Part shown: positions 1 through 9,649 of the stretch, piece after piece
How the letters are laid out: each line of letters opens with the position of its first letter
Numbering within the stretch: the stretch's first letter is position 1
Source of the DNA: a virus
Lineage: Duplodnaviria; Heunggongvirae; Uroviricota; Caudoviricetes
Virus record (IMG/VR): IMGVR_UViG_2660238600_000001
Location: 1 to 9,649 of that record
DNA: 9,649 nt
Direction: 5' to 3' (one strand)
The notes under the pieces: generated by a model
What the model saw: the letters and a program-made list of their open reading frames with translations, nothing else
What the model was told of the DNA's origin: nothing
Databases searched by the model: none
Position numbers and translations under genes: made by a program

Positions 1-231
1 ATCATTTGCGGGTGCATGGCCCGTCTGAAAAAGAACAACAGCGATTTGCATGATTTATTAGTAGATTATTATATAGTCGGTATGACATTCATGTCACTGG
101 CAGGTAAGCATTGCTGCTCTGATGGTTATATCGGGAAAAGGTTACAAAAGGCTGAGGGCATAATTGAAGGGATGTTAATGGCATTAGATATCCGGTTAGA
201 GATAGATATCGTTGTTAATAACTCTAATTAA
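1..231 (+). CDS. 3' portion of a Q-like late-gene antiterminator (5' end lies outside the window)
   Basis: Frame 1 is open from base 1 ([20 protein letters not shown]...HCCSDGY...) to TAA at 229-231. Cys/His-rich as expected for zinc-binding Q proteins; lies directly upstream of the porin and lysis cassette as in DLP12-type prophages. Identity rests on recollection and synteny only. Confidence 0.45.
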
Positions 232-264
232 TACGCCAATTATTTACTAAAAGTTATTAAAAAT

Positions 265-288
265 GGGGCGTTGAAGCGCCCCCAAAAA
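265..288 (-). terminator. Intrinsic terminator read on the minus strand, downstream of the porin gene
   Basis: Stem GGGGCG (265-270) / CGCCCC (277-282) with 6-nt loop; on the minus strand the hairpin is followed by ATTTTT. No T-run on the plus strand. Confidence 0.4.
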
Positions 289-322
289 TAAAGGGTAATA
301 TATAACAGAAGGTTTGTATAGT

Positions 323-409
323 TAGAAGCAAGGTTGTGCTTCTAAAGGAAGTGGCTTGAGGGAGCCACTTATATGTTGGGGAGGCAAAGCCTCCCACAAC
401 ATATCTTTT
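323..409. other. Three consecutive perfect stem-loops between the Q-like ORF and the porin 3' end; the last may act as a plus-strand terminator
   Basis: Hairpins at 323-344 (8-bp stem), 349-370 (8-bp stem) and 371-404 (about 14-bp stem with one bulge), the last followed by CTTTTA at 405-410. Confidence 0.35.
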
Positions 410-419
410 AGTAATCAAA

Positions 420-1502
420 TTAGAACTGGTAAACCATACCTACAGCAACGATATCATCGGTAGCAACGCCAGATGCTTTCGTGAAATCGCTCTTATCAAT
501 CAGGTTGATTTTGTAGTCAACAAAAGTGGACATATTTTTGTTGAAGTAATAGGTTGCACCTACATCAACATATTCAACCAGGTCCTGATCACCCCAAACA
601 CCCAAGTCTTTTCCTTTAGAATGCAGGTAAGCAACGGATGGACGCAGGCCGAAGTCGAACTGATATTGTGCAACAGCTTCGAAGTTTTGTGCTTTGTTGG
701 CAATATGGTTATTACCAAAAACAGTCATGTTCTGGGTTTCAGAATAGGTGGTGGCCAGATAGATGTTGTTCGCATCATATTTCAGACCAGCTGCCCATAC
801 TTCAGCATTTTGACCAGAAGCATTCAGACCGTTGTTACCGAGGATAACCTGATTATTAGTGCGATCAGATTTAGCATAGGTTGCACCCACGCCGAATCCT
901 TCATACTCATAAGTAGTTGAGAAACCGAAACCATCGCCATTAGCTTCAGTTACTTCATTTCGGTCATTTTTGCCCTGATACTGAGCTGCAAAGTTCAGGC
1001 CATCAACCAGACCAAAGAAGTCGTTGTTACGATAAGTTGCAACACCTGTGGTGCGACCAGTCATGAATACATCTGTTTGGGTCCAGGTATCGCCACCGAA
1101 TTCTGGCAGAACGTCGGTCCATGCACCAATATCGTATGCTACACCGTAGTTACGGCCATAATCGATGGAGCCGTAGTCACCGAATTTCAGGCCAGCGAAG
1201 GCAAGACGGGTTTTATCTTTGGAGGAACCTTGAGATTCAGCGCGGTTGCCTTTGAATTCATATTCCCACTGACCGAAACCAGTCAGTTGATCGTTGATTT
1301 GGGTTTCACCTTTGAAGCCAAGACGGGCATAAGTAGTATCACCATCATCTGCATCATTAGAGGAGAAGTAGTGCTTAGCATTAACTTTCCCGTACAGATC
1401 CAGCTTGTTACTGTCTTTATTATAAATTTCAGCTGCCTGAGCAGACATCGCCATCAGTACTGATGCAGCTACAGCAGAAATTGCCACTGTTAATTTTTTC
1501 AT
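420..1502 (-). CDS. nmpC: Outer-membrane general porin, NmpC/OmpD/Lc subfamily of the OmpC/OmpF/PhoE family (prophage-borne)
   Basis: 360-aa minus-strand ORF from ATG at 1502-1500 to TAA at 422-420. Signal peptide [23 protein letters not shown], then [16 protein letters not shown], internal PEFGGD loop motif, and C-terminal ...VAVGMVYQF ending in Phe. The track's longer ORF adds 17 upstream codons with no signal-peptide logic. Confidence 0.9.
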
Positions 1503-1900
1503 CGTGAGACCTTTTTTTGAACATTTATTAAAAAATGATGCCCTGCGCGACAAATATTCATCTAATCAATGTGATTAATTCAAGATGTAAGTTTTAGATT
1601 CTTATTTAAATTGTGATCTAGATCTCTATTTTTATCTGAACTTTTTCTAATGCATGCTGTGCATGACTATTCTCTGAAAGAAAATAAATTTGGTAGCTAA
1701 ATTATATTAAAGGTTGTTATTTATAAGTGTTCTATAATTCATCTCTTTAATTTAAATTCACTGAAAATAACGTCGGAAATTATTTAATGATTATTTGTTT
1801 ATTTTTCCTTATGTGATTGTGGTGGTGTTTTGAACACTCGATATCATTCTCACAAATATTGTTTAGAGGTTTACGTACGTAAAAAATTGGTTATGCTGTT
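1503..1900 (-). promoter_or_regulatory. AT-rich upstream regulatory region of the porin gene (promoter not pinned down)
   Basis: About 400 bp of markedly AT-rich DNA with A/T tracts immediately 5' of the porin start. No unambiguous -35/-10 pair could be assigned by eye. Confidence 0.3.
1870..1897 (+). promoter_or_regulatory. Candidate sigma70 promoter; possible late-promoter (pR'-like) equivalent
   Basis: TTTACG (1870-1875), 16-bp spacer, TATGCT (1892-1897), about 30 bp upstream of a strong intrinsic terminator. Functional assignment is inference. Confidence 0.25.
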
Positions 1901-1927
1901 AAGAGTGGTTACTTCGCCACACAGCTT

Positions 1928-1953
1928 AAACCCGCCGTCGAGCGGGTTTTTTT
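1928..1953 (+). terminator. Rho-independent terminator (tR'-like position)
   Basis: AAACCCGC (1928-1935) / GCGGGTTT (1943-1950) stem with 7-nt loop, followed by a run of seven T (1947-1953). Confidence 0.6.
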
Positions 1954-2076
1954 GTACCTGTAAACCTGGTGCAGTACGGTAAACACGCTGGTGGTCGTGA
2001 ATACTGACTTTTTATCTTGCTGGCTTTTTAGACAAGAGTTATTGGTATGTCATGTTAACCATGAAGGTAAAAAGAC

Positions 2077-2271
2077 ATGCTAAAACAGCTAGATATGACA
2101 GAAACGGCGAAAGTTGTTTTTAATGAATTAAACGGCAAACCGGCAACAGTCGGGGAGATTGCACAAAACACATACCTTTCACGCGAACGCTGTCAGTTAA
2201 TACTGACCCAGCTGGTTATGGCGGGGCTGGCAGATTACCAGTTCGGCTGTTACAGACGCCTTCAGCAATGA
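2077..2271 (+). CDS. Small hypothetical protein (64 aa) with helix-turn-helix-like core
   Basis: ATG at 2077 with AAGG 9 nt upstream; segment ATVGEIAQNTYLSRERCQLILTQLVMAGL looks like a (winged) HTH. No family recognised. Confidence 0.5.
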   Translation: MLKQLDMTETAKVVFNELNGKPATVGEIAQNTYLSRERCQLILTQLVMAGLADYQFGCYRRLQQ

Positions 2272-2420
2272 AGGGCTTTTAATTTGTGAAAATGGGCGGC
2301 TGGTGGGTGTTGGTAGCACCTGCCAGCCATTCGCTCATGCTTACTGGTCACAAGCGAACCACGGCCCACTGCTTTAGCGCAAAAGCAGAGTGAGCCTACC
2401 AGAGTTACGCTTACTGATCC

Positions 2421-3473
2421 ATGAAAAATACTGTGAAAATAAACAGTACTGATTTAATCAACGCTGATTGCCTGCATTTTATTCAGTCCCTGCCTGATGA
2501 TTCCATTGACCTGATTGTTACCGATCCGCCGTACTTCAAGGTGAAACCCAACGGTTGGGACAATCAGTGGAAAGGGGACGAAGATTACCTGAAGTGGCTG
2601 GACCACTGTCTGGCTCAGTTCTGGCGGGTGCTGAAACCTGCCGGAAGCCTTTACCTGTTCTGTGGACATCGCCTCGCATCTGATATCGAGATCATGATGC
2701 GTGAACGTTTCAACGTTCTTAACCATATTATCTGGGCGAAGCCGTCCGGACGATGGAACGGGTGTAATAAAGAAAGTCTGCGCGCATATTTTCCCGCAAC
2801 AGAACGCGTTCTGTTTGCTGAACATTACCAGGGACCATATCGCGGCAAAAGTGACGGCTATGCGGCAAAAGAAAGTCAACTCAAACAGCACATAATGGCA
2901 CCGCTGATTTCGTATTTCAGGGATGCTCGTGCCGAACTGGGTATAACGGCAAAACAGATTGCCGAAGCCACTGGTAAGAAAAATATGGTTTCCCACTGGT
3001 TTGGTGCCAGTCAGTGGCAGTTGCCGAATGAGGCTGACTACCGGAAGTTGCAGGCACTGTTTTCCCGTATAGCGGCAGAGAAATTTCAGGAACAACAACT
3101 GGAACAACCACACCACCAGCTGGTGGCATCTTATGATTCACTGAATCGCAAATATTCTGAATTGCTGGATGAGTTTAAAACTCTCCGGCGCTATTTCTCC
3201 GTATCAGTTTCCGTGCCTTATACCGATGTCTGGACGCATAAACCCGTTCAGTTCTACCCGGGTAAACATCCGTGTGAGAAGCCTGCGGATATGCTCCGGC
3301 AAATAATCAGTGCCAGTAGTCGACAAGGCGATCTGGTTGCTGATTTCTTTATGGGATCCGGTTCCACAATAAAAGCGGCAATGGCGCTGGGGCGTCGGGC
3401 GTTAGGTGTTGAACTTGAGTCAGAGCGGTTTAATCAGACGGTGAAAGAGGTAAGTGAACTGGTGGGGAAATAA
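2421..3473 (+). CDS. Orphan DNA methyltransferase, beta-class amino-methyltransferase (N6-adenine or N4-cytosine)
   Basis: 350-aa ORF. Catalytic motif IV DPPY near the N-terminus (LIVTDPPYF) and AdoMet motif I near the C-terminus (DLVADFFMGSGST), i.e. beta-class order. No restriction endonuclease gene is adjacent. Confidence 0.9.
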   Translation: MKNTVKINSTDLINADCLHFIQSLPDDSIDLIVTDPPYFKVKPNGWDNQWKGDEDYLKWLDHCLAQFWRVLKPAGSLYLFCGHRLASDIEIMMRERFNVLNHIIWAKPSGRWNGCNKESLRAYFPATERVLFAEHYQGPYRGKSDGYAAKESQLKQHIMAPLISYFRDARAELGITAKQIAEATGKKNMVSHWFGASQWQLPNEADYRKLQALFSRIAAEKFQEQQLEQPHHQLVASYDSLNRKYSELLDEFKTLRRYFSVSVSVPYTDVWTHKPVQFYPGKHPCEKPADMLRQIISASSRQGDLVADFFMGSGSTIKAAMALGRRALGVELESERFNQTVKEVSELVGK

Positions 3474-3480
3474 TTCTGGT

Positions 3481-3506
3481 GGCCACGTTGCGTGGCCTTT
3501 TTATTT
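3481..3506 (+). terminator. Rho-independent terminator after the methyltransferase gene
   Basis: GGCCACG (3481-3487) / CGTGGCC (3491-3497) stem with 3-nt loop, followed by TTTTTATTT. Confidence 0.55.
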
Positions 3507-3549
3507 CCAACACAGCACCCGCAAATATCGCGAGGTGAGAGATGACGAA

Positions 3550-3885
3550 ATGCCTCATAACCCAAATACCTGGCCGGACTGGCTGGAGTTGTTTCAGAGC
3601 TGGTGGCGTGGAGATACGCCGCTGGGCGCAGTGATTATGTCGATTGTTATGGCTGGTTTGCGCATCGCCTATTTTGGCGGTGGTGGTGGCTGGAAGCGAA
3701 AAACGCTCGAGATTTTGCTATGTGGCGCTCTGACGTTGACCTTTGCATCCGCGCTTGAGTATGTCGGATGGCCTAAATCGCTTTCTGTTGCCATTGGTGG
3801 TGGGGTGGGGCTGATCGGTGTCGATGCTATTCGTGGGGCTGCAATGAGAGTAATCGGTAACAAGTTTGGTAGCTCGAAGGAGTAA
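3550..3885 (+). CDS. Holin, lambda S-like class I (three predicted transmembrane segments)
   Basis: ATG at 3550 preceded by GAGGTGA; three hydrophobic stretches (LGAVIMSIVMAGLRIAYF, TLEILLCGALTLTFASALEYV, LSVAIGGGVGLIGVDAI) and a charged C-terminus; directly upstream of R. The track's 3454 start would put the terminator hairpin inside the coding region. Confidence 0.7.
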   Translation: MPHNPNTWPDWLELFQSWWRGDTPLGAVIMSIVMAGLRIAYFGGGGGWKRKTLEILLCGALTLTFASALEYVGWPKSLSVAIGGGVGLIGVDAIRGAAMRVIGNKFGSSKE

Positions 3886-3888
3886 TTT

Positions 3889-4365
3889 ATGCAGGTACTA
3901 AATTCCCAGCGTAAAGCTTTCCTGGATATGGTTGCATGGTCAGAAGGAACGGATAACGGGCGACAACCGACACGTAACCACGGTTATGATGTTATTGTCG
4001 GTGGTGAACTGTTTACTGATTACTCCGATCACCCTCGCAAACTTGTCACGCTAAACCCAAAACTCAAATCAACAGCAGCCGGACGTTACCAGCTTCTTTC
4101 CCGTTGGTGGGATGCCTATCGTAAGCAGCTTGGCCTGAAAGACTTCTCTCCGAAAAGCCAGGACGCTGTGGCATTGCAACAGATTAAAGAGCGTGGCGCT
4201 TTACCGATGATTGACCGCGGTGATATTCGTCAGGCAATCGACCGTTGCAGCAATATCTGGGCTTCATTGCCGGGCGCTGGTTATGGTCAGTTCGAGCATA
4301 AGGCTGACAGTCTGATTTCAAAATTCAAAGAAGCAGGCGGAACGGTCAGAGAGATTGAGGCATGA
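3889..4365 (+). CDS. R: Endolysin, lambda R-type lytic transglycosylase
   Basis: 158 aa, nearly collinear with lambda R as recalled ([22 protein letters not shown]...[24 protein letters not shown]...). The catalytic Glu of the WSEGT motif is present. Confidence 0.92.
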
Positions 4366-4820
4366 GCAGAGTCACCGCGATTATCTCCGCTCTGGTTATC
4401 TGCATCATCGTCTGCCTGTTATGGGCTGTTAATCATTACCGTGATAACGCAATCGCCTACAAAGAGCAGCGCGATAACAAGGCCAGTGAACTGGAGAAGG
4501 CGAACGCCACCATCGCTGACATGCGGAAGCGTCAACGTGATGTAGCAGAACTCGACGCAAGATACACAAAGGAGCTTGCTGATGCTAACGCGACTATCGA
4601 AAGTCTCCGTGCTGATGTTTCTGCTGGGCGTAAGCGCCTGCAAGTCGCCGCCACCTGTGCAAAGTCAACGACCGGAGCCAGCGGCATGGGCGATGGAGAA
4701 AGCCCAGGACTTACAGCAGATGCTGAACTCAATTATTACCGTCTCCGAAGTGGAATCGACAAGATAACCGCGCAGGTTAACTACCTGCAGGAATACATCA
4801 GGACGCAATGCCTGAAATAA
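4362..4820 (+). CDS. Rz: Rz inner-membrane spanin (i-spanin)
   Basis: ATGA start/stop overlap with R; N-terminal transmembrane segment [23 protein letters not shown] followed by a charged coiled-coil region; closely lambda Rz-like. Confidence 0.9.
4582..4767 (+). CDS. Rz1: Rz1 outer-membrane lipoprotein spanin (o-spanin), embedded in the +1 frame of Rz
   Basis: ATG at 4582 with AGGAG 8 nt upstream; lipoprotein signal with lipobox (LLGVSAC), then a proline-rich segment ([15 protein letters not shown]). The track's TTG start at 4576 is less likely. Confidence 0.8.
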
Positions 4821-4851
4821 TTTTTTTGCAAATCACAAAGTCCATTTAATG

Positions 4852-4877
4852 AGCCTCGCGATGCGGGGCTTTTTTTA
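4852..4877 (+). terminator. Rho-independent terminator after the lysis cassette
   Basis: AGCCTCGC (4852-4859) / GCGGGGCT (4863-4870) stem with one G-U pair, followed by TTTTTTT (4870-4876). Confidence 0.6.
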
Positions 4878-5025
4878 CATCTGAATTTCACAGCGCATCT
4901 CACGCGCATATTACATCACCCGAGCCTTTCAGAAAGTTGAGCCTGAGAACTGCCGTATATGGTGGCGACCATCTCGGGGCGGCTTTTCTGTGAGACAGGC
5001 TCACTTTCTAAAAGGTAAAGACGCT

Positions 5026-5514
5026 ATGAACCAATTAGAAGAAAAGCTTCAAAGAATGATTTCCTTATACAAGGAAGATAACTGCCAAAAAGTTCCTGAA
5101 AACATCGCAGAGTTAATGGAATTGGCAAGTGAATTTTCTGGCATGCTTAAGTCGTCAGGTGTTCGGTCAGCGTTCTTTGTTGAAATGCTGATGCACGGCG
5201 GACTTATGGCAACAATGAGACGTGTAATGGAAGACCAGAGAAAAGAACCTCCTCAGGTATACGTTTTGTCATCGAAGAAAACTGGGCTAACCAAAATTGG
5301 GTATTCATCCAACATTCCACAACGCATCAAATCGCTTGGCAACTCTGGACCAGACTGCTTGAAGCTTGAGTGCCTGATCCCTGGTGGAAGAGAAACTGAA
5401 AACATGCTTCATCGCAAATTTGCCGCAAAGAGAAAGCACGGTGAATGGTTCGCCCTGTCCAAGGATGACATTGAGGGATTGAAATCTGTAGCGATTACTT
5501 CTGATGGCTATTAA
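5026..5514 (+). CDS. T5orf172 (GIY-YIG superfamily-like) domain protein with an unassigned helical N-terminal region; moron at the lambda bor position
   Basis: ATG at 5026 with AAAGG upstream, 162 aa. C-terminal half carries the T5orf172-type pattern: VYVLSS...GLTKIGYS...RIKSL...LKLECLIPGGRETENMLHRKFAAKRKHGEWFAL. The N-terminal 90 aa matches nothing I recognise. Confidence 0.7.
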   Translation: MNQLEEKLQRMISLYKEDNCQKVPENIAELMELASEFSGMLKSSGVRSAFFVEMLMHGGLMATMRRVMEDQRKEPPQVYVLSSKKTGLTKIGYSSNIPQRIKSLGNSGPDCLKLECLIPGGRETENMLHRKFAAKRKHGEWFALSKDDIEGLKSVAITSDGY

Positions 5515-5554
5515 TGCTTGTTTAGAGCAATTTTCATAACAACTCTTCATTACA

Positions 5555-5583
5555 AAGCCCATCTACTGGTGGGCTTGATAATG
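5555..5583. repeat. Hairpin-GATAATG element, copy 1
   Basis: AAGCCCA (5555-5561) / TGGGCTT (5570-5576) stem with 8-nt loop, immediately followed by GATAATG (5577-5583). Confidence 0.4.
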
Positions 5584-5828
5584 AAACCGTGATTTACATC
5601 CCCACAATCCGGGTATGTAAAAGATAGTTCAGGCGAGAACGGATTTAACTAAATCTGTGCGCCACCAGTTAACGGCAGTACCACGAAACAACCCAAGCCA
5701 GTAAGTGGGGAAATAACACCGGCAGCCACTGAAAGATGAACCTCCTGCCTTATGGCAAAAAAGATTCTTTGTGGTGGCGGACTGATGGAAAGACATCCTA
5801 ATTTCAGCCAAACATTGAAGGAGTTGTT

Positions 5829-5900
5829 ATGTCAGCAGAAGGTTTCAATAACCCATCAAAATTCCGGGATGAGTGGGATAGCAGCGTAAAGAGTAAGTGA
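5829..5900 (+). CDS. Very short ORF (23 aa) with strong ribosome-binding site; coding status uncertain
   Basis: GAAGGAG (5817-5823), 5-nt spacer, ATG 5829: MSAEGFNNPSKFRDEWDSSVKSK. Its TGA overlaps the ATG of a 12-codon ORF (5900-5938, MPSQKPFPTEWL) as TGATG. Confidence 0.2.
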   Translation: MSAEGFNNPSKFRDEWDSSVKSK

Positions 5901-5910
5901 TGCCATCACA

Positions 5911-5943
5911 AAAGCCATTCCCTACAGAGTGGCTTTGATAATG
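5911..5943. repeat. Hairpin-GATAATG element, copy 2
   Basis: AAAGCCA (5911-5917) / TGGCTTT (5930-5936) stem with 12-nt loop, followed by GATAATG (5937-5943). Stem differs from copy 1 by compensatory changes while the 3' heptamer is conserved. Confidence 0.4.
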
Positions 5944-6192
5944 GCTTATACCCTACACGGGATAACTTAACTGATATCCCTTTTAAAGGATAAAGGTATT
6001 CAAGCCTGACACATCATGCGCTGTATCGTCGCCGTATTCCCGTATTAACAGAGACCGTAGCCCGACGGGGAACTCCTTCTGCGCGAGTGTGTGGGAATAA
6101 TCAAAAACGATGCACACCGGGGTTACCGGGTACACATATTTCATCATGCCAGCGAGTCCGGTTCTGGCACGGAAGAAACCGGACGTTATGAT

Positions 6193-6603
6193 TTAGTGCG
6201 GAAATATTTGTGTAGTGTTCTGAATGTTCTCAGTAAAGAGTAATGAATTATCAAAGGTATAGTAATACCTTTTGTTTTCGTGGATATTTGTAATCCATCT
6301 GAAAACCCCTGCAGTAGCAAGATTTTTCCTGTATTCGTAAAATGATAACTCTCCTGATTTGAATCCTTTTAAGGTGGCTTCTATAAGGCATTTATTTTTT
6401 GAAAATCTTACATTTACAACCTTACCCTGTCCTTTTATTAAAACCGTATTATCGTTTTCAAGAACAAGATGAATATTCTCTGTGGCTAAATAGTAAATGT
6501 AATGTGAGACATTGTGACGTTTTAGTTCAGAATAAAACCAGTGATAGTTTAAATTATTTCGCACTTTATCGAATATTTGTTTAAAAATGGCAACCTGAGC
6601 CAT
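6193..6603 (-). CDS. AT-rich hypothetical protein, 136 aa (YbcV / DUF1398-like by recollection)
   Basis: Start at ATG 6603 (MAQVAIFKQ...) preferred over 6618 because GGAAGG lies 8 nt upstream on the minus strand. Markedly lower GC than flanking genes; Tyr/Asn/Lys-rich. Family assignment is from memory of the equivalent DLP12/lambda right-arm ORF. Confidence 0.6.
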
Positions 6604-6659
6604 TGTAGTACCTTCCATGTGATATGAGGGGTGTAGTCTGCACGATTATCTAAATTGCT

Positions 6660-6893
6660 TCAATCTGGTCTGATCTGTTTTCTGAGCAATTCAGTAATGT
6701 CACTCTTTTCTTTGTTTGCTTCAGGAGAAACTCTTTTTTCTGAGCACAGTCTCCGGCGGCAGGCTTCAATGACCCAGGCTGAGAAATTCCCGGACCCTTT
6801 TTGATCAAGAGCGATGTTAATTTGTTCAATCATTTGGTTAGGAAAGCGGATGTTGCGGGTTGTTGTTCTGCGGGTTCTGTTCTTCGTTGACAT
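6660..6893 (-). CDS. Ribbon-helix-helix (Arc/MetJ/CopG-like) putative DNA-binding protein, 77 aa
   Basis: Basic N-terminus then RNIRFPNQMIEQINIALDQKGSGNFSAWVIEACRRRL, i.e. a beta-strand / helix / helix layout like Arc. ATG at 6893; weak RBS. Confidence 0.6.
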   Translation of the reverse strand: MSTKNRTRRTTTRNIRFPNQMIEQINIALDQKGSGNFSAWVIEACRRRLCSEKRVSPEANKEKSDITELLRKQIRPD

Positions 6894-7062
6894 GAGGTTG
6901 TCCCGTATTCAGTGTCGCTGATTTGTATTGTCTGAAGTTGTTTTTACGTTAAGTTGATGCAGATCAATTAATATGATACCTGCGTCATAATTGATTATTT
7001 GACGTGGTTTGATGGCGTAGATGCACGTTGTGACATGCAGATGATAATTATTATCATTTTGC

Positions 7063-7262
7063 GGGTCCTTTCCGGCGATCCGACAGGTTACGGGGCGGCG
7101 ACCTCGCGGGTTTTCGCTATTTATGAAAATTTTCCGGTTTAAGGCATTTCCGTTCTTCTTCGTCGTAACTTAATGTTTTTATTTAAAATATCCCCTGAAA
7201 AGAAAGGAAACGACAGGTGCTGAAAACGAGCTTTTGGGCCTCTGTCGTTTCCTTTCTCTGTT
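7063..7262 (+). other. Lambda-type cos site: cosQ (about 7063-7069), cosN with 12-nt cohesive-end sequence GGGCGGCGACCT (7093-7104), cosB with R3/I1/R2/R1 (about 7145-7258)
   Basis: ...GGGTCCTTTCCGGCGATCCGACAGGTTACG | GGGCGGCGACCTCGCGGGTTTTCGCTATTTATGAAAATTTTCCGG... matches the recalled junction of lambda right and left ends. Repeated R-site cores at 7145-7162, 7202-7217 (inverted) and 7242-7258, with an A/T-rich bend site between. Confidence 0.85.
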
Positions 7263-7281
7263 TTTGGCCGTGGAATGAACA

Positions 7282-7827
7282 ATGGAAGTCAACAAAAAGC
7301 AGCTGGCTGACATTTTCGGTGCGAGTATCCGTACCATTCAGAACTGGCAGGAACAGGGAATGCCAGTTCTGCGAGGCGGTGGCAAGGGTAATGAGGTGCT
7401 TTATGACTCTGCCGCCGTTATAAGATGGTATGCCGAAAGGGATGCTGAAATTGAGAACGAAAAGCTGCGCCGGGAAGTTGAAGAACTGCGGCAGGCCAGC
7501 GAGACAGATCTCCAGCCAGGGACTATTGAGTACGAACGCCATCGACTTACGCGTGCGCAGGCCGACGCACAGGAGCTGAAAAATGCCAGAGACTCCGCTG
7601 AAGTGGTGGAAACCGCATTCTGTACTTTCGTGCTGTCGCGGATCGCAGGTGAAATTGCCAGTATTCTCGACGGGATCCCCCTGTCGGTGCAGCGGCGTTT
7701 TCCGGAACTGGAAAACCGACATGTTGATTTCCTGAAACGGGATATCATCAAAGCCATGAACAAAGCAGCCGCGCTGGATGAACTGATACCGGGGTTGCTG
7801 AGTGAATATATCGAACAGTCAGGTTAA
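7282..7827 (+). CDS. nu1: Terminase small subunit Nu1
   Basis: 181 aa, near-identical to lambda Nu1 as recalled (MEVNKKQLADIFGASIRTIQNWQEQGMPVLRGGGKGNEVLYDSAAV...); N-terminal winged HTH; overlaps A by 26 nt as in lambda. Confidence 0.95.
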   Translation: MEVNKKQLADIFGASIRTIQNWQEQGMPVLRGGGKGNEVLYDSAAVIRWYAERDAEIENEKLRREVEELRQASETDLQPGTIEYERHRLTRAQADAQELKNARDSAEVVETAFCTFVLSRIAGEIASILDGIPLSVQRRFPELENRHVDFLKRDIIKAMNKAAALDELIPGLLSEYIEQSG

Positions 7828-8056
7828 CAGGCTGCGGCATTTTGTCCGCGCCGGGCTTCGCTCACTGTTCAGGCCGGAGCCACAGACCGCCGTTGAATGG
7901 GCGGATGCTAATTACTATCTCCCGAAAGAATCCGCATACCAGGAAGGGCGCTGGGAAACACTGCCCTTTCAGCGGGCCATCATGAATGCGATGGGCAGCG
8001 ACTACATCCGTGAGGTGAATGTGGTGAAGTCTGCCCGTGTCGGTTATCTCCGGTGA
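7802..8056 (+). pseudogene. A: Terminase large subunit A, N-terminal remnant (about 82 codons, then a 2-codon out-of-context tail)
   Basis: MNISNSQVNRLRHFVRAGLRSLFRPEPQTAVEWADANYYLPKESAYQEGRWETLPFQRAIMNAMGSDYIREVNVVKSARVGY matches the lambda A N-terminus; after VGY the frame reads LR-stop. The ATPase and nuclease domains are absent. Confidence 0.85.
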
Positions 8057-8075
8057 GCCGGAGGAGTATTTCCGG

Positions 8076-8675
8076 ATGTCGCCGGAGGACTGGCTGCGGG
8101 CAGAAATGCAGGGTGAGATTGTGGCGCTGGTCCACAGCCACCCCGGTGGTCTGCCCTGGCTGAGTGAGGCCGACCGGCGGCTGCAGGTGCAGAGTGATTT
8201 GCCGTGGTGGCTGGTCTGCCGGGGGACGATTCATAAGTTCCGCTGTGTGCCGCATCTCACCGGGCGGCGCTTTGAGCACGGTGTGACGGACTGTTACACA
8301 CTGTTCCGGGATGCTTATCATCTGGCGGGGATTGAGATGCCGGACTTTCATCGTGAGGATGACTGGTGGCGTAACGGCCAGAATCTCTATCTGGATAATC
8401 TGGAGGCGACGGGGCTGTATCAGGTGCCGTTGTCAGCGGCACAGCCGGGCGATGTGCTGCTGTGCTGTTTTGGTTCATCAGTGCCGAATCACGCCGCAAT
8501 TTACTGCGGCGACGGCGAGCTGCTGCACCATATTCCTGAACAACTGAGCAAACGAGAGAGGTACACCGACAAATGGCAGCGACGCACACACTCCCTCTGG
8601 CGTCACCGGGCATGGCGCGCATCTGCCTTTACGGGGATTTACAACGATTTGGTCGCCGCATCGACCTTCGTGTGA
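8076..8675 (+). CDS. K: Tail tip assembly protein K (JAMM/MPN plus NlpC/P60 domains), apparently full length
   Basis: ATG at 8076 with GGAGGAG 9 nt upstream; 199 aa; JAMM motif HSHPGGLPWLSEAD and NlpC/P60 Cys region GVTDCYTLFRDAYHLAG. Length and the 103-nt overlap with I match my recollection of lambda K. Confidence 0.8.
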   Translation: MSPEDWLRAEMQGEIVALVHSHPGGLPWLSEADRRLQVQSDLPWWLVCRGTIHKFRCVPHLTGRRFEHGVTDCYTLFRDAYHLAGIEMPDFHREDDWWRNGQNLYLDNLEATGLYQVPLSAAQPGDVLLCCFGSSVPNHAAIYCGDGELLHHIPEQLSKRERYTDKWQRRTHSLWRHRAWRASAFTGIYNDLVAASTFV

Positions 8676-9118
8676 AAACGGGGGCTGAAGCCATCCGGGC
8701 ACTGGCCACACAGCTCCCGGCGTTTCGTCAGAAACTGAGCGACGGCTGGTATCAGGTACGGATTGCCGGGCGGGACGTCAGCACGTCCGGGTTAACGGCG
8801 CAGTTACATGAGACTCTGCCTGATGGCGCTGTGATTCATATTGTTCCCAGAGTCGCCGGGGCCAAGTCAGGTGGCGTATTCCAGATTGTCCTGGGGGCTG
8901 CCGCCATTGCCGGATCATTCTTTACCGCCGGAGCCACCCTTGCAGCATGGGGGGCAGCCATTGGGGCCGGTGGTATGACCGGCATCCTGTTTTCTCTCGG
9001 TGCCAGTATGGTGCTCGGTGGTGTGGCGCAGATGCTGGCACCGAAAGCCAGAACTCCCCGTACACAGACAACGGATAGCCGCGCTGACAGACAATACGCA
9101 GGGGGCAGCAGGTCTTGA
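8573..9118 (+). pseudogene. I: Tail assembly protein I, truncated (about 170 N-terminal residues, then an unrelated 12-residue tail)
   Basis: MAATHTLPLASPGMARICLYGDLQRFGRRIDLRVKTGAEAIRAL...[19 protein letters not shown] follows lambda I, then diverges ([13 protein letters not shown]-stop); lambda I is about 223 aa by recollection. Confidence 0.75.
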
Positions 9119-9122
9119 GTTA

Positions 9123-9649
9123 TACGAGGTGTATAACAACGGATATCCAACAGCGTATGGAAATATCATTCACCTGAAAGGGATGACAGCCGTTGGCGAA
9201 GGTGAGTTACTCATCGGCTGGAGTGGTACAAGCGGTGCTCATGCTCCGGCATTTATTCGTTCACGACGGGATATGACCGGCGCAAACTGGTCGCCGTGGG
9301 CGCAGCTTTACACCTCGGCTCATCCTCCTGCAGAGTTTTATCCAGTCGGTGCACCAATCCCGTGGCCATCAGATACCGTTCCGTCTGGTTATGCCCTGAT
9401 GCAGGGGCAGACTTTTGACAAATCTGCTTACCCGAAACTTGCAGCCGCTTATCCGTCAGGCGTGATCCCTGATATGCGTGGCTGGACGATTAAGGGCAAG
9501 CCCGCCAGTGATCGAGCCGTATTGTCTCAGGAACAGGACGGCATTAAATCACACACCCACAGCGCCAGCGTATCCAGTACGGATTTGGGGACGAAAACCA
9601 CATCGTCGTTTGATTACGGCACTAAATCCACGAATAACACTGGTGCGCA
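9123..9649 (+). pseudogene. Side tail-fibre C-terminal fragment (Stf-like), no own start, continues beyond the window; left boundary approximate
   Basis: Frame 0 reads ...[62 protein letters not shown]...[76 protein letters not shown]...[13 protein letters not shown]. The last two thirds match the lambda Stf C-terminal module as recalled. Confidence 0.65.

Follow-up and report, generated by a model that had tools for sequence, protein, structure and literature searches.

A lambda-type prophage remnant of Escherichia coli in which two deletions spared a sequence-intact cos site and nu1

Prophages that keep cos and the small terminase gene while having lost their morphogenesis genes have long been known from the Escherichia coli K-12 cryptic prophages DLP12 and Qin. 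In DLP12, which carries nohD, aaaD' and tfaD', a single 21-kb deletion joins lambda position 1018 to position 22119, which lies inside tfa, and nothing of K or I survives. Recombination of lambda with the DLP12 R-Rz-cos-nu1-A' block is about 100-fold more frequent than with the tested Rac or Qin regions; of the 19 right-side junctions sequenced, 10, about half, adjoin cos, and recombinants carrying the DLP12 nu1 are viable (PMC3945230). Initiation of packaging requires cosN and cosB, and termination, the step in which cosQ acts, requires a downstream cosQ and cosN (PMC4669245); cos phages do not perform lateral transduction (PMC12829572).

Two further systems are comparable. The cos-type PICIs (EcCICFT073 and relatives) carry a lambda-like cosQ and cosN beside a gene for a small DNA-binding packaging protein, encode no capsid genes and use the TerL and virion proteins of a lambda-like helper. 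Their cosB is unrelated to that of the helper and devoid of R sequences, and their Rpp protein redirects TerS (PMC9026076). They also possess int, alpA and pri-rep, replicate on induction, reach about one third of the helper size and contain neither a lysis cassette nor tail debris. In docL-type particles, which arise by in situ packaging of an unexcised lambda prophage, and in cosmids, a chromosomal or plasmid cos is cut by terminase acting in trans and packaging proceeds from cosB toward nu1, productively only when a second cos of the same orientation lies at a packageable distance. The docL particles were reportedly described by Sternberg and Weisberg in 1975.

The DNA analysed here (9,649 nucleotides, hereafter the window) is the entire 9.6-kb contig LLYF01000039.1 from the draft assembly of the commensal E. 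coli strain ccpm5063 (AY63), isolated from a healthy student. Alignments to lambda and to the isolated phage PhiR42_1 (PV340562.1) bear out the original prediction of a gutted lambdoid prophage with two deletions and a sequence-intact cos and nu1, and the region is very probably the right-hand part of a lambda-family prophage decaying by deletion. We interpret it as an ordinary decaying lambda-type prophage, in which cos and nu1 were spared by two deletions of the head genes and most tail genes. Judged from the genes seen in the window, the element would be incapable of packaging itself.

The architecture of the locus is very similar to that of DLP12, with the shared order quuD, porin, lysis cassette, ybcV-like gene, ylcI-like gene, cos, nu1 homologue, truncated A and tail-fibre debris, and with morphogenesis genes gone through deletion. 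Left of cos, the Q-dependent late region comprises a porin moron, an orphan methyltransferase, holin, endolysin and spanin genes, a T5orf172 gene and the ybcV-like and ylcI-like genes. This lambda-family gene order, which runs up to cos and a gene for a Nu1 homologue, places the locus among the defective prophages of the DLP12/Qin kind, as does the loss of head and tail genes by internal deletion, with A', K', I' and stf' left as fragments and both junctions mapped on lambda and on PhiR42_1. The cos-nu1-A' block of DLP12 is 97.9% identical to that of the window, whereas the two loci differ in their lysis genes and morons (a lambda-S-type holin, an R-type endolysin, the methyltransferase and T5orf172 in the window; essD, rrrD and borD in K-12 DLP12) and in the number of deletions, the window having two (one joins lambda 956 to 14246, the other joins lambda 15277 to stf codon ~708). 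The intact lambda-family genomes PhiR42_1, the 14EC007 prophage and lambda itself retain a complete A-to-stf block, of which the window lacks about 19.9 kb. The cos-nu1-A' block of PhiR42_1 is 99.7% identical to that of the window. The features discussed below are collected in Table 1.

Table 1. Positions of the cos subsites, terminase genes, deletion junctions and tail-gene fragments in the window.
Feature	Position	Strand	Evidence or remark
cosQ, GGGTCCT	7063..7069	+	Identical to lambda in alignment
cosN, cohesive-end sequence GGGCGGCGACCT	7093..7104	+	Identical to lambda bp 1-12
cosB (R3-I1-R2-R1)	7142..7257	+	Alignment to lambda
R3	7142-7157		Lambda 50-65; one change, G54A at 7146
I1 interval (IHF-site interval)	about 7158-7200		Private change C99T at 7191
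R2	7201-7216		Lambda 109-124, inverted; identical to lambda
R1	7242-7257		Lambda 151-166; identical to lambda
nu1 (nohD-type small terminase subunit), intact, 181 codons	7282..7827	+	Pfam Phage_Nu1, E = 2.4e-101, profile 1-164/164
A' (large terminase subunit remnant), 82 lambda codons (7802-8047) + Leu-Arg-stop	7802..8056	+	Zero nucleotide differences from lambda 711-956
Junction 1, lambda 956 / lambda 14246-14249	8045..8051		Three-way alignment
K', native K codons 39-247	8048..8675	+	Possible starts GTG 8037, ATG 8076
I' remnant, 168 lambda codons (to 9077) + 13 out-of-frame codons + stop (9118)	8573..9118	+	Pfam Lambda_tail_I, E = 7.7e-29, residues 14-97
Junction 2, I codon 168/169 / stf codon ~708-710	9072..9079		Alignment; imperfect microhomology CGGATA(A)C vs CGGGTAAC
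stf' (C-terminal part of side tail fibre gene)	9078..9649	+	Runs off contig end; no own start codon; frame differs from I'

The cos of the window is a sequence-intact lambda-type site and is predicted to be functional. Window positions 6731-8047 align with lambda 48141..956, across cos, at 97.3% identity, and lambda bp 1 corresponds to window position 7093. The cosQ 7-mer, which we take to be lambda 48473-48479 following the coordinates used in the Feiss-lab literature, and cosN match lambda with lambda spacing. The flanks of cosN likewise match lambda without a difference, from lambda 48487 to bp 53, and the exact alignment of cosN called for in the original prediction revealed no mutations; nicks are predicted at 7092/7093 on the top strand and 7104/7105 on the bottom strand. 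At the sequence level, cosB contains R3, the IHF site, the inverted R2 and R1 (the extent of R3 and the 16-bp sequence common to R2 and R1 are as described in PMC9026076). The only change within the R sequences, G54A, lies outside the TerS contact region (bp 55-63) and is also present in PhiR42_1, an isolated viable phage; the C99T change in I1 is private to the window. The three cos subsites, which had been thought to look intact, are so at the level of sequence by these comparisons.

Likewise, the presumed integrity of nu1 is supported by a full-length open reading frame whose product covers the whole Phage_Nu1 profile. The protein differs from lambda Nu1 at three amino acids and is identical to its counterparts in PhiR42_1 and in the 14EC007 prophage. 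Compared with lambda, the gene has six synonymous and three non-synonymous codon differences, too few substitutions for a selection test, which would also be confounded by gene conversion from active phages. The large terminase gene A, expected to stop after about 82 codons, ends after exactly 82 lambda-identical codons and retains positions 3-40 only of the 247-position GpA_ATPase profile. A breakpoint shared with K-12 aaaD was considered and rejected, as the K-12 A' runs on to lambda 1018.

Alignment to lambda, as had been proposed, defined both junctions together with their microhomologies. Deletion 1 corresponds to lambda 957-14248 (13,292 bp, in agreement with the roughly 13 kb estimated beforehand), and the sequence picks up at lambda 14246-14249, at the expected distance of 28 bp before the annotated start of lambda K. 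The microhomology at this joint is a perfect TAT, or TAT(C)TCC when one extra base is allowed. The CCGGAGGA repeats at 8059-8066 and 8080-8087, put forward earlier as candidate junction microhomology, were rejected: both copies are native K-region sequence inside K, downstream of the joint. Deletion 1 took A codons 83-641, every head gene, the tail genes from Z to L and the first 38 codons of K.

The original prediction also described K as apparently full-length and its retention alone as notable. The first statement is true only against the 199-residue annotation of lambda K, which stems from a one-base gap in the lambda reference and misleads any judgement of whether K is full length. The native protein of relatives has 247 residues, with a Prok-JAB domain at 3-104 and an NlpC/P60 domain at 111-224, and relative to it the first 38 codons are missing from the window. 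The 247-residue K covers JAB profile positions 3-112 with 52.3 bits, and the window open reading frame covers profile positions 46-112 only, with 25.6 bits. With codons 1-38 deleted, K' does not have the complete N-terminal Prok-JAB domain that characterizes the tail tip assembly protein; about a third of that domain is missing at its N-terminal side, whereas the NlpC/P60 domain is intact. Because deletion 1 truncated K, the supposed retention of K alone calls for no explanation.

The K'-I' segment is 99.3% identical to lambda 14246-15277, and the homology of I to lambda ends at 15277, that is at codon 168/169. The expected joining of a truncated I to a C-terminal fibre module was found, as a fusion to the side tail fibre gene; the cut is at codon 168/169 and not at residue 172, and the two genes are not joined in frame. 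Relative to PhiR42_1, deletion 2 measures about 6.6 kb; it took the end of I together with J, lom and the first ~707 of the 1025 codons of stf. The remaining stf' is 97.9% identical to PhiR42_1 45349-45926, within the PhiR42_1 stf gene (43228-46305), contains a Pfam Collar domain (E = 7.8e-13) and shares 86% identity with lambda orf-314 over window 9348-9626. We infer that K', I', A' and stf' are all non-functional debris.

Our comparisons show that two illegitimate deletions at short microhomologies occurred within the prophage, and that cos and nu1 probably stayed intact as they lay just left of a deletion endpoint, in a parent that would have been a working phage until recently. The fragments of this locus share 97-100% identity with viable phages and show no frameshifts, and an intact cos-nu1 needs no packaging role of its own. 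As for DLP12, the terminase of a superinfecting or co-resident lambda-like phage can probably recognise the cos of the window, and the cos-nu1 block would then be a hot substrate for homologous recombination and marker rescue with that phage; remnants of this kind store a phage-grade cos and nu1 open to recombination with infecting lambda-type phages. The locus would not be packageable as a unit, as it would have to excise and replicate and a second cos would have to lie at a packageable distance, and the window shows no partner cos of the kind on which docL and cosmid packaging depends. Kotani and colleagues are said to have reported in 1992 on the cutting by terminase of cos sites that cryptic prophages keep in the chromosome; a search of the available literature for such direct cleavage found nothing usable.

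The closest relatives occupy two different chromosomal sites: 14EC007 lies at ybhC, and 99COLEC lies at the DLP12 locus, whose att site is argU. The 14EC007 prophage, at ybhC, the lambda attB site, is an intact close relative whose late region is 99% identical and is followed by a complete A through I. In other relatives the breakpoints close to the right of cos vary: (i) in 99COLEC, lambda 524, inside nu1, is joined to 13500, (ii) in P0015, A is broken at codon 81, (iii) in H118 and H119, nu1 is joined directly to J or tail-tip genes, and (iv) 94-3024 has at least six separate deletions. Orphan copies of lambda-type cos-nu1 are commonplace. Among 5,426 complete E. coli genomes, 4,604 carry cos-nu1, at 8,966 places in all, compared with 4,860 places for distal A. 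As lambda-type prophages decay in E. coli, their remnants commonly retain cos-nu1. The excess over distal A is compatible with passive retention plus shared DLP12/Qin ancestry, and positive retention would predict it too. As one further deletion state of a very common class of remnants, the locus carries little weight singly; its modest value lies in being a clean and recently formed case with both junctions mapped to the base, which beside the independent breakpoints of its relatives illustrates stepwise decay by short-microhomology deletion.

Among the alternatives to passive decay, we consider it unlikely that the locus is a domesticated remnant in which cos-nu1, perhaps with K' or I', is selected for a benefit to the host. 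Orphan cos-nu1 is much commoner than distal A in E. coli, nu1 is intact in both the window and K-12, and the DLP12 nu1 is functional in lambda (PMC3945230); however, the frequency is largely accounted for by vertical inheritance of DLP12/Qin and by recombination with active phages, and nu1 is truncated in some relatives. The lack of part of the JAB domain in K' and the truncation of I' and stf' also argue against this reading, and there is no experimental hint of defence. A PADLOC scan of the window for defence and satellite functions returned only an orphan type II methyltransferase, a weak PDC-S57 match on the T5orf172 protein and a resemblance of the Nu1 N-terminus to the 'mad1' model (E = 9e-12), but the last is confined to the generic helix-turn-helix region (residues 1-55). 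Candidate benefits would be a decoy or cleavage site that harms lambda-type infections, or a regulator that evolved from the winged helix-turn-helix of Nu1.

It is also very unlikely that orphan cos-nu1 in general is kept by selection, as a cleavable site and TerS that would sabotage lambda-type phages or exchange genes with them, or that would seed helper-driven packaging of the adjacent chromosome. The modes named for such a module are a decoy, an abortive-infection trigger and a recombination hub. Its intactness, its being far commoner than the distal terminase genes and the many deletions that end just right of it are facts that would fit.

The likeness to cos-type satellites noted in the original prediction does not find support, and a helper-dependent satellite that keeps cos and Nu1 for packaging by a lambda-like phage, in the manner of cos-type PICIs or P4, is highly improbable. 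A sequence-intact cos and an intact nu1 would suit such an element; moreover, a cloned lambda-type cos suffices for plasmid transfer by lambda or phi80, and the PICI EcCICFT073 is mobilised via cos (PMC6092414). However, the window bears no satellite hallmark. Its cosB is of the helper's own R3-I1-R2-R1 type, the gene beside cos encodes not Rpp but a full-length Nu1 identical to the TerS of a viable phage, and the lysis genes (holin, endolysin and spanin) persist together with tail-gene fragments; within the 9.6-kb window, int, alpA and pri-rep were not found. The breakpoints vary among close relatives and some fall inside nu1, which would be unexpected were the module the selected unit. Lambda packages productively roughly 78-105% of its genome length, as reported by Feiss and colleagues. 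A parent of PhiR42_1 size (48.7 kb) minus about 19.9 kb would leave about 29 kb, below this range, and packaging would in addition require concatemers or a second cos.

An assembly artefact was the remaining rival explanation. The window is a complete short draft contig ending in sequences repeated among lambdoid prophages, neither joint occurs in the 5,426 complete E. coli genomes (no place covers at least 80% of window 7700-9649), and a 27-mer spanning junction 1 has zero matches in each of the GTDB species representatives, IMG/VR and the JGI metagenomes, which shows only that junction 1 is rare. Chimeric short-read joins between repeats of several lambdoid prophages have nonetheless a negligible chance of explaining the joints, and we conclude that these did not arise in assembly. 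Junction 1 is seen again in SRR18174398, an independent Logan assembly that differs from the window at 2 of 1,386 positions (99.86% identity), and junction 2 in a contig of an ENA metagenome that is 99.0% identical. The two joints overlap by just 3-8 bp, far below assembler k-mer length, and the identical contig is found in four samples. Searching with exact proteins yielded the source contig itself and two others, each about 1.4 kb long.

The element in the window is one more deletion variant in the series of DLP12/Qin-type cryptic lambdoid prophages (DLP12 and Qin being cryptic prophages of Escherichia coli K-12), a thoroughly known kind to which it adds a deletion state only. The window is the whole 9,649-bp contig LLYF01000039.1 (draft assembly GCA_001484305.1), so that both of its ends are assembly breaks; its proteins are entered in the database under E. 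coli and the strain of the accession is ccpm5063 (AY63), a commensal from a healthy student (PMC7133007). The late region upstream of cos is that of a normal lambdoid phage. No restriction partner for the orphan methyltransferase is visible within the window. The T5orf172/GIY-YIG-type gene may represent an anti-phage moron, and its product has a weak match to a candidate defence family in PADLOC (PDC-S57, E = 7e-6); a KilA-N gene takes its place in the prophage of E. coli strain 14EC007.

Features of the window with their coordinates
Feature	Position	Strand	Remarks
quuD-like Q gene	left part		end only
OmpC-like porin	420-1502	minus	moron
Small PHROG-331 gene	2077-2271	+	between porin moron and holin
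Orphan type II N6/N4 DNA methyltransferase	2421-3473	+	between porin moron and holin; PADLOC MTase_II, E = 2e-152
Lambda-type holin	3550-3885
Endolysin	3889-4365
Rz spanin	4362-4820
T5orf172/GIY-YIG-type gene	5026-5514	+	PHROG 4284; between spanin and ybcV-like genes
ybcV-like DUF1398 gene			after T5orf172 gene
ylcI-like DUF3950 gene		minus	after T5orf172 gene
cosQ	7063-7069
Cohesive end	7093-7104		12 nt
R3	7142-7157
R2	7201-7216
R1	7242-7257
nu1	7282-7827		winged helix-turn-helix, residues 1-55, at 7282-7446
A'	7802-8047		82 codons

BLAST against lambda (NC_001416) aligns window 6731-8047 with lambda 48141 via cos to bp 956 at 97.3% identity, window 7093 being lambda bp 1. We aligned the cos regions of the window, lambda, K-12 DLP12, three other E. 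coli prophages, PhiR42_1 (an isolated lambda-family phage, propagated on ECOR13) and an independent Logan contig. cosQ, R2 and R1 do not differ from lambda, nor does the stretch between lambda 48487 and bp 53, which contains the cohesive end. R3, which extends over lambda bp 50-65 (PMC9026076), carries a single change, G54A, that lies outside the TerS-contacting region (bp 55-63) and is present in PhiR42_1 too. The sole window-private change is C99T (lambda numbering; window 7191), which falls within the interval of IHF site I1 that separates R3 from R2; apart from it, the cos region exactly matches both PhiR42_1 and the Logan contig sharing the first junction. The nu1 gene, which encodes TerS, is an open frame with an end-to-end Pfam Phage_Nu1 match, and its product is identical to PhiR42_1 Nu1, with three substitutions relative to lambda. 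As originally predicted, cos and nu1 are thus intact at the sequence level. The winged helix-turn-helix of Nu1 matches the PADLOC 'mad1' model of the MADS system (E = 9e-12), a similarity that probably reflects shared HTH ancestry only.

The 82 codons left of the TerL gene A are base-for-base identical to lambda and are followed by Leu-Arg-stop, after which the sequence resumes at lambda 14246-14249 (junction 1); window 8045-9077 corresponds to lambda 14246-15277 (BLAST against NC_001416, 99.3%). The overlap at this joint is a perfect TAT or, with one extra base, TAT(C)TCC, and deletion 1 spans lambda 957-14248 (13,292 bp). Homology to lambda I stops at window 9077 (lambda 15277, the first base of codon 169), and from 9072 the window matches PhiR42_1 from 45349 onward at 97.9%, that is, from codon 708 of its 1,025-codon side tail fibre gene stf; by BLAST, window 9348-9626 matches lambda 21245-21523 (orf-314, part of stf) at 86%. 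This second overlap is imperfect, CGGATA(A)C vs CGGGTAAC, and relative to PhiR42_1 deletion 2 took about 6.6 kb, from the last part of I through J and lom to two thirds of the way along stf. Since the I and stf remnants (I' and stf') lie in different frames, I' adds 13 junk codons before its stop at 9118, and stf' lacks a start.

The original prediction, a gutted prophage that lost nearly all head and tail genes in two deletions, the first of roughly 13 kb and ending A after about 82 codons, is essentially right. TerL, portal, capsid and tail genes are gone, and the alignment to lambda that it called for, complemented by PhiR42_1, maps both junctions, with short microhomology at each. Corrections concern the I cut, the fibre frame, the truncation of K and the microhomologies. 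I is indeed joined to a fibre C-terminal module, but out of frame and at codon 168 rather than about residue 172, and the CCGGAGGA repeats proposed as candidate microhomology differ from the actual overlaps, being ordinary K-region sequence involved in neither joint.

The tail gene K had been described as apparently full-length. PhiR42_1, the 14EC007 and 94-3024 (E. coli) prophages, HK630 and the independently sequenced lambda KT232076 have an extra G near lambda 14266 compared with NC_001416, with which K opens at lambda 14133 and encodes 247 residues containing Prok-JAB (residues 3-104) and NlpC/P60 (residues 111-224) domains (Pfam). The reference annotation gives K 199 residues, an entry carried over into HK630; this version appears to lack the N-terminus as the result of either an error in sequencing or a frameshift specific to the strain. 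The K frame of the window keeps only JAB profile positions 46-112, indicating that deletion 1 also took K codons 1-38; from the general JAMM motif, we infer that the PAESCG segment within them carries the catalytic glutamate. The retention of K alone, considered notable at first, consequently needs no explanation: K' is debris, as are A', I' and stf'.

Different decay states occur among related elements. The 14EC007 prophage, which adjoins ybhC (lambda attB region), is the closest relative of the left part that is still intact: its porin, methyltransferase and lysis region matches that of the window at 99% identity and leads into a complete A through I. In K-12 DLP12, lambda 1018 is joined to 22119 (nohD-aaaD'-tfaD'); in E. 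coli 99COLEC, lambda 524, inside nu1, is followed by 144 bp of L and then stf; 94-3024 has at least six separate deletions that leave parts of A, W, B, H, M-I and J. Other genomes join nu1 directly to J-related or tail-tip genes, and another lineage has A broken at codon 81. Among the relatives examined, at least six different right-hand breakpoints lie no more than about 2 kb from cos. Many draft contigs of E. coli, some of them >600 kb, end inside A at codons 74-92, which suggests a widespread repeat boundary where cos-nu1-A' copies shared between prophages diverge.

Given that the remnants share 97-100% identity with viable phages and contain no frameshifts, both deletions probably arose by recent illegitimate recombination in a prophage functional shortly before, and cos and nu1 would have survived through their position just left of the left breakpoint. 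Alternatively, selection might maintain orphan cos-nu1 modules because they act as decoys, in recombination or in mobilisation. In a set of 5,426 complete E. coli genomes, megablast placed the cos-nu1 segment (7040-7830) at 8,966 sites in 4,604 genomes, with a median of 2 per genome, against 4,860 sites in 3,429 genomes for distal A (lambda 1100-2636). On a very rough estimate, four thousand copies of lambda-type cos-nu1 stand without the remainder of the terminase gene. Old remnants inherited vertically, such as DLP12 and Qin, must account for much of this surplus in place of separate events, and it therefore shows the ordinariness of orphan cos-nu1, not selection. Nothing specific in the window supports selective retention, which we regard as a residual, unlikely possibility beside survival through breakpoint position.

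The original prediction was wrong to see a satellite-like design. Gram-negative cos-type PICIs combine lambda-like cosQ and cosN with an unrelated cosB, carry next to cos an rpp gene whose product captures the helper's TerS, encode int, alpA and pri-rep, replicate on induction and are about a third as long as the genome of the helper (PMC9026076, PMC6092414). In contrast, the window has the phage's own type of cosB, TerS itself after cos, a lysis cassette and debris of tail genes, all of which speak against satellite identity; int, alpA and pri are absent from its 9.6 kb. The three defining PICI features tested on the 9.6-kb contig were not found, and the element is not a satellite by any criterion testable on it.

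Subtracting about 19.9 kb from a parent the size of PhiR42_1 would leave an element of about 29 kb; this size is outside the range that lambda packages productively, and packaging of the element as a unit is not expected. Initiation of packaging requires cosN and cosB, termination a downstream cosQ-cosN (PMC4669245), and lateral transduction is reportedly not performed by cos phages (PMC12829572). The best guide to likely consequences is work on DLP12: lambda infecting K-12 recombined with its R-Rz-cos-nu1-A' region about 100 times as often as with the tested Rac or Qin regions, 10 of 19 sequenced right-side junctions adjoined cos, and recombinants bearing DLP12 nu1 were viable (PMC3945230). 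By analogy, a helper's terminase may cut, or recombination may occur, at the element.

That the joints are assembler chimeras, with the head and tail genes in reality contiguous here, is very unlikely. Neither joint occurs in the 5,426 complete genomes, and scans of GTDB representatives, IMG/VR and JGI metagenomes for the junction-1 27-mer gave no hit. Even so, the overlaps measure only 3-8 bp and each joint recurs in another assembly, junction 1 in the Logan assembly of SRR18174398 (2 mismatches in 1,386 bp, one of them at the C99T position) and junction 2 in an ENA metagenome contig (99.0% identity). The late region is itself a mosaic, window 1-4875 being 99.1% identical to the 14EC007 prophage at the lambda attB site and window 4362-7612 sharing 99.5% identity with the DLP12-locus element of 99COLEC.
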